Shown piece after piece: positions 34,168 to 40,429 of a DNA stretch of 64,000 nt. The DNA comes from Campylobacterota bacterium (GTDB lineage: Bacteria; Babelota; Babeliae; Babelales; RVW-14). The stretch lies in assembly GCA_020633995.1 (NCBI GenBank), contig JACKCO010000003.1, forward strand, positions 4,441 to 68,440, given 5' to 3'. A program made the position numbers and the translations under genes. Under the pieces are notes generated by a model. The model was not told the DNA's origin and made no database searches. It saw only the letters and a program-made list of their open reading frames with translations. Positions within the stretch are counted from its first letter, which is position 1. Every line of letters begins with the position of its first letter.

Positions 34168-35763
34168 ATGAAAAAAAGTCTAAGAATTATTTGCATACTT
34201 GCTCTCTCATTTACATCTCCACTGTTTTGCGCAGATAACAGTGCCTTTTGGAAAGCTATTGGAAAGACTGTAGGCAAAGTCATTGATGCTGGTGTAGAGG
34301 CTGCTGAAAAAATGACTCAGGGTCCTCAGGATCAAATTGATAGATTAAATAGAGAAATAGATAAACTCAAGCATGAAGCCGCAACTCTTACAGAAGGAAC
34401 GCCAGCACACAACAACGTTCTAGAGCAAATAACATTAAAAATGGCTGAGATTAAAACTCACCAAAATAATTTAGCTCAACGCAGCGGAATGGTAAATACA
34501 ATGATGGGCTCTTTAACGCAGGCGGCATCATCAAAAATTAACGACCTTGAAAAAGAGCGTGATAATCAGCGTGAAATTACAAAGCAAGTAGCTATCGCTA
34601 AGAAAAAACAAGAACTTAAGCAACAAGGCGCTATGGAGCGTTTGCAGTTTTTCCTCCAACCTCAAAACCTGAGCCGAATTGCATTTCTTACAGGTATGAC
34701 TGGTGGCGCACTCATTGGAACGTACTTTATGACTAAGTTTTTATACGTTTATCTTGAAAAACAAATCGGCCGACCAAAGCTTGTACGTGAGTCATCAATC
34801 TATGACCACACCCTCTGGACAATGTTTAAAGAAGTTATGGGCATTGAAGTTAAAGCAATGAAAGATGAAATCTTTTCATTTGACAACTTGATTATGGACC
34901 CAGAACTCACACGCAAACTCAAACTCTTTGCCGACATGACCAAAAACAAACGCTCCATTGGTCTGCCGTACCAACACCTTATGCTGTACGGTAAGCCAGG
35001 AACGGGTAAAACTATGTTTGCTCGAATTTTGTCGTACCACTCAGGCATGGACTACGCCATTATGTCTGGCGCTGATTTTGCACAGTTTAAAGAAGGTGAA
35101 GACATCACTGAACTGCACAACCTGTTTGACTGGGCTGAACAAAGCAGTAAAGACGGCCTGATCATTTTCATCGACGAAGCGGACGCGGCACTCAGAAGCC
35201 GTAGAGAACTTAGTGAACGCGGTGTTAAGCTTGTTAACGCATTCCTTTCGCGCACAGGTACTAGCTCTAAGCACTTCATGCTTATTTTTGCAACTAACTA
35301 CCCTGATGACATTGATGCTGCAGTACTTAGCCGTGTTAACAAAAAAATCAACATTCCGCTTCCAGGGCACAATGAACTGATCGGGATTTTGAACTTGTAC
35401 ATGAAAAAATACCTTATCGACGACATTCGCGTCATCACCATCGATGATGAAAAACAAGAATGTGGTCTTGAACTTGATCCTGAAATCACTGCTCCAGAGT
35501 TTGTTTCTTTTGTTGCAAAGCAGATGAAAGGTTTTTCTGGTCGTGAAGTTGAACAGTTTGTTGATGAGGTACGTTCATGCGCTTACGCTACTCCAGACCT
35601 AACGCTTACAAAAGCATTGTTTGTTGACTGCATGCACGATAAGGTTGCGCAACACAAAAATGCTTCACGTTGGGACAAAGCAGGGCAGGCATCGTTTGAA
35701 CAGCATGTTTATAGTGAGCCCAGCGCTACTACAACAACACCCGTAGCCGCAGCTGCTGCATAA
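34168..35763 (+). CDS. ATAD3-like AAA+ ATPase 1 (signal peptide, coiled coil, TM, AAA)
   Basis: [11 protein letters not shown] after the TM helix. [87 protein letters not shown]. Confidence 0.9.
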   Translation: [531 protein letters not shown]

Positions 35764-35786
35764 ATAATCAGAGCTAACTAGTTGAG

Positions 35787-35825
35787 CAGCCCTCCAAATT
35801 GATCATGGAGGGCTGCTTTTTTTTG
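35787..35825 (+). terminator. Rho-independent terminator
   Basis: GCAGCCCTCC-aaattgatcat-GGAGGGCTGC followed by T8. Confidence 0.85.
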
Positions 35826-37634: not shown

Positions 37635-37667
37635 ACAACAAGCTTTTGATGAGGGTGGAACTAATGA

Positions 37668-38975
37668 ATGCCACCCCCAAAATCCCTTAAAACCAAACAC
37701 CCCCGTATGGTTACAAAAAAAAGAAACGTTTTTCTAACACTCCTTTTTTGTCTTTTTTTATGCCTCAAGCCAATTCATTGCAGTGATGAAACTATTTCTG
37801 CATACGACATAGAGTCAGTCGATACAGATAATCTTGATCGAGAAATAGCACGTCTTACGCACGAACTCAACACAGCAGACTACAAGCAAAAACTTGAAGA
37901 CAGCATCTGTGGCAGTCAGCAGCAAAGTTTTAACAACACCATCCTGGCAAGCAAAACTTTTGACGATGGCAAAACCCGCTTAACCCTTGCACTCAAAAAC
38001 AGTGATCTCATCCTTGGTAGTTTTTTGTTTGCTGAACTAGCTTTTTCATGGCTTGTACAGCAACAGTTTACGCAAATCATGCAACAGCAGCTGATCACCA
38101 AACTCATAGCCTTACCCAATGAACTTGAAACTGATCTTGAACACCTTGCTGAGTTACAAACAACAGAAGGCAATGATGAAACCAAAAACCATGTAACTGA
38201 GAAACTAGCGACATATTTTTTGCCTGAGTTCTACTCAAAAGAGTATGCTTACACGATTGGCGCAAGCATTGCAAACACACTTTCACTTCGCCTCTCTCAG
38301 ATATGGCATGACAATTTTCTGCTTACACGAAGCAGCAAGGCGGAACATCTTGGCTGGGTGGCGTTTTTATCTGTTATCCAAGCAGCAATAAAAAGAGCCG
38401 ACCTAAAAAAAGAAAATCTACAAGAGAGCATTCGCTTTGTTGCACCGGCTCTCATGCCCCACATTCAGGAACTTGATAGTGTTCATATCTCGTGTTTTGA
38501 CCTCCTGCAAATACTCTGTCCCGTACAACTCACGCCCACCAACACCATGGTCAGACTTTGTGAACTGCTTAACAGCAAGCTCTGCCCAGAAGACAGCCTA
38601 TTGCAAGTTTTTAATAGCACGTTTGTTAAAGATATGATTCAAACGTGTGGTTTTGTGTGGTCAATCCAGACACAAAATAAACAAAGTGTTCAACGCTTTA
38701 TCCAAGATATAACGCAAAATTATCCCACCTATCAAGGGCTTTTAAAAATAATTCATACCAAAAATGCACCTACCAAAGCATTGGCGTTACATGAACTTTC
38801 CCACATCGTTGAAAAAACCCTAAATAAGCCGTTTTTTGCTTTACTTGACCAACAAAACAGAACCGCCTCCCTAGGCAAAGTTCTCGTCCTTGGACCAATA
38901 ACACTGATCTTAATTCTTCCAATTGTTATAAAAATGATACCAGCAATTACATCATACCTGAGGCAACTAACATGA
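37668..38975 (+). CDS. Short paralogue of the tail-anchored partner protein
   Basis: 435 aa with a signal peptide. FNNTILASKTFDDGKTRLTLALKNSDL matches the 836-aa protein. Has a terminal TM. Its TGA overlaps the next ATG (ATGA). Confidence 0.85.
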   Translation: MPPPKSLKTKHPRMVTKKRNVFLTLLFCLFLCLKPIHCSDETISAYDIESVDTDNLDREIARLTHELNTADYKQKLEDSICGSQQQSFNNTILASKTFDDGKTRLTLALKNSDLILGSFLFAELAFSWLVQQQFTQIMQQQLITKLIALPNELETDLEHLAELQTTEGNDETKNHVTEKLATYFLPEFYSKEYAYTIGASIANTLSLRLSQIWHDNFLLTRSSKAEHLGWVAFLSVIQAAIKRADLKKENLQESIRFVAPALMPHIQELDSVHISCFDLLQILCPVQLTPTNTMVRLCELLNSKLCPEDSLLQVFNSTFVKDMIQTCGFVWSIQTQNKQSVQRFIQDITQNYPTYQGLLKIIHTKNAPTKALALHELSHIVEKTLNKPFFALLDQQNRTASLGKVLVLGPITLILILPIVIKMIPAITSYLRQLT

Positions 38976-40429
38976 AAAAAATGACGCTCACGATTCTTAT
39001 ATTTTTTAGTCCTTGTCTTGCCAGTGAAGGAACCATCCAAACGTTGCTTCGCGGCTATACTGATATGGTCACAAGAAAAATAGAACAAAAAAAAGAATAT
39101 CAAAAAAAAATAGAGGATCTCGAAAAAAAAGGTAATGCTGATAAAGAACTTGACCAAGCAAGAGAGGAGCTACAAATCATCTCAAACTGGTTGGTACACT
39201 GTGACGAAACAGTCATGCAAAATGGCACCAAGTACCTTGAAAACCAAATAGGTATAAGCGAAAAAAAGATTGAAGGTGATATCCGAATCAAGGAAGCTGT
39301 GGCAACGCAGCGAGAAAAAAGTAGAGAATCACTAGAATTTTATAAACTATTGCTTAAACCTAAAAGCCTGGGCAAAATATCGCTTTTTGCCAGTCTGTTA
39401 GGTGGCAGTTTGATCAGTGCCTACTTCGCGAGCAAATTTTTACATACATACCTTGAAACACAGATTGGTAGGCCAAAACTCATACGTGACTCATCCATCT
39501 ACCAGCACACAATCTGGAGCATGCTCAAAAAAACATTTGGCGTTGAAGTTGAGCAAGTCAGGGATGCCATTTTCTCGTTCGATAATCTCATTCTTCCCCA
39601 ACAACTTACGCACCAGTTAAGGCATTTTGCACAAATCACCAAGAACAAACATCTTTTAGGCCTGCCTTACCAGCACATCATGCTTCACGGCAAACCTGGA
39701 ACAGGCAAAACTATGTTTGCACGGATTTTATCCTACTTTTCAGGCATGGACTATGCCATTATGTCTGGCGCCGATTTTGCACAGTTTAAAAACGGCGAAG
39801 ATATTGCTGAACTTCACAATTTATTTGACTGGGCCGAACAAAGCAAAAATGGCCTCATCATTTTTATAGACGAGGCAGACGCGGTGTTTAGAAACAGAAA
39901 GTTTCTTGATAAACAGGGCATAAACTTAATTGACGCATTCCTATCTCGCACTAACGCAAGCTCCAAACACTTCATGCTGGTATTTGCAACAAATTACCCT
40001 GAAGACATTGACTATGCAGTTTCAAGCCGTATCAACAAAAAAATTAACATTCCACTCCCCGGTCATGACGAGCTTGTACGTATGCTCGAGCTCTACATAC
40101 AAAAATATTTACGCGACGATATCCGTGTTGTTGCCACGGAAGGACAAGAAGTAGAATTTGCCTTGACTATTGACGCTGGTATTGATCATGAATTTATCGT
40201 ACAAACGGCTAAGCTTATTGAGGGCTTTTCCGGTCGAGAGGTTGATCAATTTATCGATGAAATCAGATCAAATGCCTATGGGACTGATGATCTGACGGTA
40301 ACAAAAGAACTCTTCATTGAAGCACTTTATGACAAGCTCTCACAACACAACGAAAGTATGGCTTGGCAAGAAAAAACAACACATATTCAATTGCCTAACA
40401 TTTTACCATTAGCACCATCAGCAGCATAA
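38972..40429 (+). CDS. ATAD3-like AAA+ ATPase 3
   Basis: Signal peptide, coiled coil and TM. [86 protein letters not shown]. Confidence 0.9.
   Translation: [485 protein letters not shown]

Follow-up and report, generated by a model that had tools for sequence, protein, structure and literature searches.

Three tandem open reading frames in a 64,000-nucleotide stretch of bacterial DNA (hereafter the window) encode, judging from their sequences, true relatives of ATAD3 that belong to a bacterial branch of this AAA+ ATPase family. All three were confirmed on the plus strand, as A1 (34168..35763, 531 aa, Pfam AAA E 4e-25), A2 (36171..37634, 487 aa) and A3 (38972..40429, 485 aa), and the organism carrying them is a divergent lineage within the Dependentiae (TM6/Babelota), a phylum whose bacteria live obligately inside protist cells; every FtsZ best hit with a taxon name comes from Dependentiae/Babeliales. 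We found no published description of bacterial ATAD3 relatives, ATAD3 having so far been described from eukaryotes only, and such proteins provide a route to studying the origin of ATAD3.

In BLASTP comparisons A1 aligned with insect ATAD3 from the region preceding the transmembrane (TM) helix to the C-terminal helix (199 bits, E 5e-61, 32% identity, 455 aa), a likeness much greater than chance would give, and A2 scored 179 bits against ATAD3. The nearest annotated relatives of A1-A3 outside the Dependentiae are eukaryotic ATAD3 proteins, which follow directly after the Dependentiae matches with E values of 1e-59 to 1e-50, while FtsH or Cdc48 reach only about 55-80 bits. A genome scan gave at most 78 bits for the best AAA protein from outside the family vs. 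242 bits for family members, and the reciprocal search with insect ATAD3 as query returned 108-223 bits against 71 bacterial proteins before a first outgroup at 81 bits. In both search directions, then, the AAA module is nearer to ATAD3 than to the other AAA+ families compared, and the similarity lies well above that to other classical-clade AAA proteins. Among solved structures the best sequence and fold matches are Cdc48/p97/VAT and the proteasomal Rpt/PAN proteins (53-59 bits per domain, with Cdc48 as the best AAA protein; Foldseek E about 1e-15), which places A1-A3 in the classical clade but is uninformative on family, because genuine ATAD3 matches Cdc48/Rpt just as weakly. Unlike A1-A3, these are soluble proteins, in many cases with two AAA rings, and they carry other N-domains. 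An assignment to FtsH was also rejected, as no peptidase was detected by Pfam, TIGR01241 scored 48-69 bits where its cutoff is 600, and the proteins end about 60 residues past the lid.

Homology with ATAD3 takes in the TM helix with the GKPxLVRExS linker after it, and then the AAA module, lid and C-terminal helix, and profile-profile comparison (hhalign) of the TM helix plus linker gave 99.1% probability (E 7.8e-19, 66 columns). The original prediction had extended the likeness to an ATAD3-like N-terminal coiled coil, and this was not supported. When the N-terminal coiled coil was compared with the soluble N-terminal part of ATAD3, hhalign returned a probability of 0.2%, equal to reversed controls. 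The Pfam ATAD3_N model (PF12037) has 265 positions and comprises coiled coils CC1/CC2, with the TM helix and linker forming its last ~45 positions; it had no match in A1 or A3 and matched A2 at 12.3 bits over model positions 225-265 only, under the gathering threshold of 25. Some bacterial relatives do exceed this threshold (26-32 bits), solely through the last 45-75 model positions. Upstream of the TM helix the shared architecture is at most analogous.

The motif string proposed as ATAD3-like was recovered in all three proteins, with deviations in A2 and A3, when compared with authentic ATAD3 from insect, sponge and plant. The linker reads LGKPKLVRETS in A2 and has an equivalent in A1 and A3, and the Walker A block and GFSGRE are also present. 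A2 deviates at several motifs (NVDYALVKGPDF, FNNLMDWAEQS, EAFLSRVEKGHKKFMFVFATNHP, IPVALPGESER and GFSGRNI), and the A3 Walker A is HGKPGTGKT instead of beginning with YG. GKPxLVRExS, MDYAI, HKLFDWA, DEADAFLR, NAFLxRTG and a single Arg in (S/D)R are derived motifs, common to ATAD3 and the bacterial group and absent in the outgroups. By its Walker A, Walker B, sensor-1 and arginine-finger motifs the AAA+ module appears catalytically intact, these positions (G275, P277-T282, D336, E337, N377 and R389) being invariant in 74 of 74 sequences. Pore loop 1, however, is QFKxG, which is non-canonical with respect to the aromatic-hydrophobic-Gly pattern and makes substrate threading uncertain. In the pore-loop region, a deletion of one residue is common to eukaryotic ATAD3 proteins and absent from the bacterial proteins and the outgroups.

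Distance-based neighbor-joining trees were built with three different distance corrections, the outgroups being limited to 14 domains of FtsH/Cdc48 type and leaving out Msp1, Bcs1, katanin and Vps4. ATAD3 and the bacterial group formed one clade with 100% bootstrap under all three corrections, and within it eukaryotic ATAD3 was monophyletic (93-94% bootstrap) with every bacterial-type sequence outside. The reciprocal scores, the fully supported clade and the family-specific motifs thus agree with the claim that A1-A3 are specifically ATAD3-like and not generic FtsH-, Clp- or Cdc48-type proteins. They are not ATAD3 proper, since they fall outside the crown-eukaryote clade and the ATAD3_N region is not found in them. 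The family is widespread in Dependentiae/Babeliales metagenomes.

A1 and A3 each follow a gene of a second family. The A1 partner, partner836 (31654..34164, plus strand, 836 aa), starts with a signal-like segment and has an additional N-terminal half rich in coiled coil, with the partner family confined to its C-terminal ~400 aa, and found no match in Pfam and NCBIfam searches. The A3 partner, partner435 (37668..38975, plus strand, 435 aa, or 422 aa from the gene caller's start), carries hydrophobic helices at its two termini, together with a helical bundle and a beta-hairpin located at a conserved FNNTxLA...LALKNSDL motif; its AF2 model (pLDDT 70.4) gave no significant match in a fold search. 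The two are paralogous (E 2e-32), and partner836 has homologues in other Dependentiae, encoded there upstream of the AAA gene. The dedicated partner that had been proposed is indeed conserved across Dependentiae, lying directly upstream of the AAA gene in eight of nine loci examined, and when the 412 ORFs in the window plus eight loci were all searched with a four-seed partner profile, it matched only the immediately upstream ORF in L001, L002, L085, L086 and L087. The partner836 stop lies 3 nt before A1, the A3 start codon overlaps the partner435 stop by 4 nt, and spacing across loci ranges from -17 to +89 nt, a pattern that suggests normal translational coupling of the AAA gene to its upstream partner. 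The partner is not obligatory, however, because A2 has none upstream and L084 lacks it. Only 21 representatives were found among 1.84e9 proteins, in a handful of lineages and on contigs equal in length to those carrying AAA homologues, and the partner appears to be a fast-evolving, family-restricted, mostly helical membrane protein.

The three ATPases are paralogues by tree and AAA-region identities, as originally proposed, although their history is not that of a single triplication in a single operon. A1 is sister to A3 (bootstrap 1.00), while A2 takes a separate tree position and is more divergent, its AAA region being 47-50% identical to that of A1/A3. Partner and ATPase were duplicated together. 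Between the recent duplicates, identity is 63% in the cytoplasmic part of the ATPase vs. 22% in the periplasmic part, and 32% between the two partners. These values point to a recent duplication of the entire partner-AAA module for A1/A3, with A2 as an older, partner-less paralogue. A strong intrinsic terminator 3' of A1 (35786..35825, plus strand; 10-bp GC-rich stem, 11-nt loop and T-run), read directly from the sequence and missed by a consensus scan because its loop exceeds 8 nt, would divide the cluster into two transcription units, with A2 as the first gene of the second. A strong predicted terminator (41606..41635, plus strand) probably ends this second unit, which would comprise A2, partner435, A3, a CS-domain protein and a 91-aa protein.

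Each of A1-A3 has a hydrophobic, signal-peptide-like N-terminal segment, as do 54 of 69 bacterial-type members, and a single internal Gly-rich helix just before the linker that is weakly hydrophobic (KD about 1.3-1.5). In A1 the signal-like N terminus is followed by a predicted periplasmic helical hairpin (residues 25-144), the TM helix (165-200), the linker, the AAA base and lid, and the C-terminal helix, and the AF2 monomer likewise runs from helical hairpin through TM helix to AAA module (pLDDT 84.6). The signal-like N terminus and the need of an ATPase for ATP suggest a cytoplasmic AAA domain and a periplasmic helical part. The positive-inside rule gives no support to this topology, which the original prediction had also put forward, the flank of the internal helix taken to be periplasmic having the larger K+R count (3.25 vs. 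2.15). The reading that we favor, and hold to be reasonably probable, is that these bacterial ATAD3-branch ATPases form an inner-membrane hexamer with a periplasmic hairpin and work with the partner on an envelope component. A Sec-type signal or anchor would export a helical hairpin of ~120-140 residues to the periplasm, and one Gly-rich TM helix and the family linker would connect it to the cytoplasmic AAA+ module. The periplasmic hairpins of the assembled hexamer, together with the partner, may extend into or across the envelope, while cytoplasmic ATP hydrolysis could power remodeling, assembly or transport of the envelope component. Such topology and logic would be those of ATAD3 in the mitochondrial inner membrane, and of FtsH minus its protease.

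Eukaryotic ATAD3 (human ATAD3A/B, Drosophila bor, C. elegans ATAD-3, plant and apicomplexan proteins; PF12037 + PF00004) is the closest known system. The likeness comprises the homologous stretch from the TM helix through the linker (LGKPSLVRETS in ATAD3) to the C-terminal helix (32% identity overall, 38-39% in the AAA region), the motifs specific to the family, the presence of one AAA domain and no protease, and a predicted layout that puts the ATPase on the cytoplasmic side, equivalent to the matrix, and the helical N-terminal part in the periplasm or intermembrane space. The bacterial proteins differ in having no detectable ATAD3_N body or proline-rich N terminus, but a Sec-type signal and shorter hairpin, so that the linker lies at about residue 205 compared with about 279 in eukaryotic ATAD3. 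Their pore-loop region differs in sequence and is one residue longer, at the Arg they read SRIhKKI where eukaryotic ATAD3 has DRxDE, and their conserved operon partner has no recognizable eukaryotic counterpart. With FtsH they share the classical-clade AAA domain and a periplasmic segment between the N-terminal hydrophobic segment and the TM helix preceding the ATPase; however, they are without the M41 zinc-protease domain, show about 25% AAA-region identity and have SR in the SRH where FtsH has GRFD.

This shared membrane layout also suits a protease-less, FtsH-like form of quality control, in which the hexamer would extract or unfold inner-membrane or periplasm-exposed proteins with the partner as adaptor or substrate, and the ATAD3 likeness would reflect descent only, with no scaffold role. 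The best fold matches (Rpt, FtsH and p97) fit such a role, as do the aromatic kept in bacterial pore loop 1 (QF; eukaryotic ATAD3 has PL) and the periplasmic thiol-redox genes (TrxR-Trx fusion, DsbD) adjoining the module in several genomes. However, a protease domain is absent and none is adjacent in the loci examined, the pore-loop motif departs from the canonical one, and the NCBIfam FtsH scores fall far under cutoff. We consider this account unlikely, and since it differs from the favored reading in the assumed substrate only, it is a sub-case more than a rival.

Somewhat less likely again is that A1-A3 act as effectors, secreted or inserted into the host, which mimic host ATAD3, enter the membranes of host mitochondria and reshape the organelle, for example by recruiting it around the bacterium. 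In the cultured Dependentiae Chromulinavorax destructans the host mitochondrion does wrap around the bacterium and expand (PMC6561590). The cluster adjoins genes for large proteins with ankyrin repeats and for further proteins whose N termini are signal-like, the module comes after type II secretion genes in L083, and the low identity of periplasmic part and partner relative to the ATPase is compatible with an arms race. The signal-like N terminus discriminates poorly between envelope proteins and secreted effectors, because about 44% of CDS carry signal peptides in one cultured Dependentiae (PMC6561590); Sec is the sole secretion signal evident, and a protein with a signal peptide and then a stop-transfer helix is predicted to stay in the bacterial inner membrane. 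This mimicry, raised as an alternative in the original prediction, is disfavored because the bacterial sequences form an old and diverse group that falls outside the eukaryote clade, and are copies of no host's ATAD3. The ATAD3_N body is also missing, and the neighborhoods elsewhere are of housekeeping type (PBP, DnaK, SRP and argininosuccinate genes). A recent horizontal acquisition of host ATAD3, with no conserved bacterial function, is very improbable and appears already contradicted by the sequences. Dependentiae live inside eukaryotes and have many eukaryote-like domains (ankyrin, MIR, Methyltransf_FA, CS), but at least ~70 bacterial-type homologues lie in bacterial genomic contexts, the operon partner is conserved, the pore-loop deletion is confined to eukaryotes, and the placement of all bacterial sequences outside the eukaryote clade argues against recent capture. 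The view that the cluster is not a stray acquisition is upheld.

Upstream of partner836 lies a thioredoxin-reductase/thioredoxin fusion (30029..31528, plus strand; Pfam) with a lipoprotein-like signal, a syntenic neighbor of the module in Babeliales whose functional tie to it is uncertain. It is 38% identical (E 1e-106) to the gene at the equivalent position in L081, the same TrxR-Trx neighborhood is seen in L081, L082 and L084, and the cluster in the window is syntenic with Babeliales.

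The three AAA+ ATPase genes of the window, A1 (34168-35763, 531 aa), A2 (36171-37634, 487 aa) and A3 (38972-40429, 485 aa), were found on the forward strand exactly where they had been predicted. Pfam assigns their products to nothing beyond the generic AAA domain (E about 1e-23 to 1e-25), and NCBIfam returns weak generic matches (PAN, FtsH, CdvC, and IteA) at roughly one tenth of the cutoffs. Assignment to a Pfam- or NCBIfam-defined family beyond generic AAA was rejected, as scores were far under the family cutoffs. The catalytic residues are intact in the ATPase family. All three proteins have Ala-rich C-terminal tails (…[11 protein letters not shown], …EPTAAPAA, and …LAPSAA; window 35731-35760, 37611-37631, and 40412-40426) resembling ssrA-type C-terminal Ala-Ala degrons.

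The resemblance to ATAD3 is specific, as had been claimed, and this is borne out by scores in both directions, by column-by-column comparison of motifs and by the tree. When A1 was searched against 5.8 billion proteins, around 60 metagenome and Dependentiae/Babeliales/TM6 proteins ranked first beyond A1 itself and A3 (E 1e-102 to 1e-60). Eukaryotic ATAD3 follows at about 190-220 bits (E 1e-59 to 1e-50), with sequences of insects, sponges, plants, green and brown algae, labyrinthulids, and others, each of which has both the N-terminal ATAD3_N domain PF12037 and the AAA domain PF00004. By BLASTP, A1 matches an insect ATAD3 with E 5e-61 and 199 bits; the 455 aligned residues (32% identity) extend from upstream of the transmembrane (TM) helix as far as the C-terminal helix with its QHKxxxxW. 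A2 reaches 179 bits against ATAD3. In the reciprocal search, insect ATAD3 scores 108-223 bits against 71 bacterial-type proteins, with the first outgroup at 81 bits. A contig survey of 185,579 species genomes, whose matches were dominated by a generic Walker-A pattern and which is not a census, contained at least two loci of the family (L001 and L002); among the matches listed, family members score 242 bits and all other AAA proteins 78 bits or less. In the viral contigs scanned, generic AAA proteins alone were found and no member of the ATPase family.

Every motif quoted in the original prediction was recovered, with A2 departing from several. The bacterial group and eukaryotic ATAD3 share GKPxLVRExS, MDYAI, HKLFDWA, DEADAFLR, and NAFLxRTG, all absent from FtsH/Cdc48-type proteins; the outgroups have nQLLxEMDG in place of NAFLxRTG, and GRFD where ATAD3 and the bacterial proteins have a single Arg in (S/D)R. 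Among AAA+ proteins of solved structure, the best match of the window ATPases is Cdc48 (53-59 bits per domain). The best PDB match of insect ATAD3 is likewise Cdc48, and thus there is no ATAD3 structure to compare with. For this reason both the PDB sequence search and Foldseek, which returned generic classical-clade AAA+ proteins for the A1 model, are uninformative on ATAD3.

The similarity has a boundary. Lack of a significant match to the ATAD3 N-terminal region had been named among the grounds for refutation, and on this point the outcome is divided. An ATAD3-like architecture had been proposed for the whole protein, and it holds for the TM helix and linker, which are homologous to the end of the ATAD3 N-terminal region, and not for the soluble part. 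PF12037 does not match A1 or A3 at all, and A2 aligns only with model positions 225-265 (12.3 bits against a threshold of 25); three relatives (P0015, P0017, and P0019) narrowly exceed the threshold at 26-32 bits, through the last 45-75 positions alone. In hhalign, the TM and linker segment matches ATAD3 at 99.1% (E 8e-19), and the soluble N-terminal part gives 0.2% probability, the same as reversed-sequence controls. The homologous unit therefore comprises the TM helix, linker, AAA domain, lid, and C-terminal helix; for the helical region at the N terminus, the likeness to ATAD3 is analogy at most. The AlphaFold2 (AF2) model of A1 (pLDDT 84.6, AAA module above 95) begins with a signal-like helix, a helical hairpin (residues 25-73 and 79-144) and the TM helix (165-200). 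Next come the AAA base, a small inserted beta-hairpin (420-433) and the lid, and a long helix forms the C terminus.

Family relationships were examined in a neighbor-joining tree of 134 sequences and 253 columns, including 14 FtsH/Cdc48-type outgroup domains, under three distance corrections. ATAD3 and the bacterial type together are monophyletic in 100% of replicates, and eukaryote-type ATAD3 in 93-94%. With outgroup rooting, the bacterial-type sequences are monophyletic in 3-18% and paraphyletic around the eukaryotes in 81-93%. The pore-loop-1 region of eukaryotic ATAD3 has a one-residue deletion and has lost an aromatic residue; bacterial proteins and outgroups retain both the length and the aromatic residue. 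The tree together with the deletion pattern therefore rules out that the genes were captured recently from a host. The ancient direction is not settled by a distance-based tree with distant outgroups, in which fast bacterial sequences may be pulled rootward. We know of no alphaproteobacterial ancestor of mitochondrial ATAD3. The position of the eukaryotic clade inside bacterial diversity and the ancestral pore-loop length and aromatic residue of the bacterial proteins have suggested to us a speculative and rather improbable origin, in which ATAD3 would have been transferred before LECA from a Dependentiae-like intracellular bacterium or, equivalently, both would descend from one envelope-spanning bacterial machine. 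If true, the bacterial module would be a living model of the original role of ATAD3 at double-membrane envelopes.

Immediately upstream of A1 and A3 lie two unannotated membrane-protein genes on the forward strand, partner836 (31654-34164, 836 aa) and partner435 (37668-38975, 435 aa), which are paralogues (E 2e-32). The first ends 3 nt before A1 and the second overlaps A3 by 4 nt. In other Dependentiae loci, the AAA gene is immediately preceded on its own strand by a 378-548-aa gene without Pfam match. A profile built from four upstream genes and searched against 412 ORFs (the window and eight loci) additionally matched only the upstream ORFs of L001, L002, L085, L086, and L087 (E 5e-9 to 5e-6), and thus the pair is kept in eight of nine loci, L084 being without a partner. 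The gene pair is conserved and translationally coupled. When 1.84 billion representatives were searched exhaustively with a profile, the partner family came to only 21 members, the named ones being Babeliales “hypothetical protein” entries; they lie on contigs that agree in length with those bearing the AAA homologues. A word-indexed homology search with the partner profile recovered its own members alone. The predicted structure (AF2 pLDDT 70) has a hydrophobic helix at each end, a helical bundle, and a beta-hairpin at a conserved motif. None of 18 members matched Pfam, and the fold search gave nothing significant; ClyA-type fold matches were dismissed as noise (E 0.2, TM-score below 0.2).

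A single operon and a triplication had been proposed, and both need revision. A strong intrinsic terminator follows A1 on the forward strand (35786-35825; 10-bp GC-rich stem, 11-nt loop, and T-run), missed by the consensus scan because of its loop length, and the next strong forward-strand terminator is at 41606. These divide the cluster into two transcription units: partner836 and A1, perhaps led by a gene for a fused thioredoxin reductase and thioredoxin (TrxR-Trx), and A2, partner435, and A3 followed by two small genes. The latter encode a 227-aa protein (40470-41153) with a short CS (p23/HSP20-like) domain match (E 1.7e-5) and a Lys-rich 91-aa protein (41302-41577) whose N terminus is signal-like. 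In the tree A1 pairs with A3 as its sister (bootstrap 1.00) and A2 is older, such that the cluster comprises one older paralogue and a recent duplication of the whole partner-ATPase module. A1 and A3 are 63% identical in the cytoplasmic part and 22% in the periplasmic part, and their partners 32%; the predicted exported parts and the partner are evolving fast, and together.

A signal-like N terminus is present in 54 of 69 bacterial members; median N-terminal hydrophobicity in eukaryotes is 0.32. One hydrophobic helix, weakly so, precedes the linker. The ATPase may form an inner-membrane hexamer with its ring in the cytoplasm, placed there because ATP is unavailable in the periplasm, and the periplasmic hairpins, together with the partner, would act on a substrate in the envelope. 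Counting positive-inside charges around the internal helix does not favor this orientation, and a signal-like N terminus discriminates poorly in this phylum, since almost half of all proteins in a cultured member of Dependentiae have signal peptides (PMC6561590). The proteins had also been suggested to be effectors mimicking host ATAD3. Dependentiae are obligate intracellular parasites of protists, and a cultured representative remodels the host mitochondrion (PMC6561590), for which reason mimicry retains some weight. However, the bacterial proteins lack the body of ATAD3_N, their clade is old and diverse, and the gene neighborhoods are housekeeping.

Animals and Plasmodium cannot do without ATAD3, which is mutated in human mitochondrial disease, and to our knowledge how it works at the molecular level has yet to be established. 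The literature searched describes a eukaryotic protein without mention of bacterial relatives, and our search found no publication that links ATAD3 with a bacterial homologue, with Dependentiae, or with TM6; a preprint from 2025 on the Plasmodium protein treats the distribution of ATAD3 among eukaryotes only. In the automatic annotation of JGI, some members from metagenomes already bear the label “ATAD3A/B.” What appears to be new is that the family has a branch in bacteria, whose members differ in the N-terminal region, carry a predicted Sec signal, and have a conserved partner that had not been described before. Such a diverse sister or ancestral group opens the origin of ATAD3 to phylogenetic testing and provides small versions, each encoded by a single gene and linked to a partner, in which the conserved TM-linker-AAA core can be studied structurally and biochemically. 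It also directs attention to a so far unexplored envelope system of Dependentiae; this phylum of protist parasites is widespread, and very few of its proteins have been characterized.

The window belongs to a divergent member of Dependentiae. Every taxon-named best match of its FtsZ is Dependentiae/Babeliales (~60% identity), and the order of TrxR-Trx fusion, partner, and AAA gene is the same in a Babeliales genome. ValS, FtsA, MgtE, SHMT, MutY, and many ankyrin-repeat proteins are also encoded. The TrxR-Trx fusion (30029-31528, forward strand; L081 6310-7758; L084 6223-7740) carries a lipoprotein-like signal (…LLLPGC… in the window, …LFFLFGC… in L081) and recurs beside the module, often with DsbD too; predicted export is odd for an NADPH-dependent flavoenzyme. 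In L083 (1-7925, Dependentiae), the module immediately follows type II secretion/type IV pilus genes (two secretins along with one PilM/GspL-like and one GspC-like gene). L001 (CAZGPI010000001.1, 318 kb), a MAG labeled “uncultured Pseudomonadota bacterium,” has a complete module; either the family reaches past Dependentiae or the bin is mislabeled. Downstream in the window, a 316-aa protein (41946-42896) combines a signal-like N terminus with a long low-complexity Arg/Gly/Ser-rich tail at a local GC of 0.49 (window about 0.41). A series of very large genes (43074-63815) follows, which taken together look like an effector-type block. One product, of 3330 aa, is rich in ankyrin-like repeats and contains long stretches that are internally duplicated; two more are ankyrin proteins (1212 and 1329 aa), and another, of 870 aa, carries the eukaryote-like domains Methyltransf_FA and MIR.
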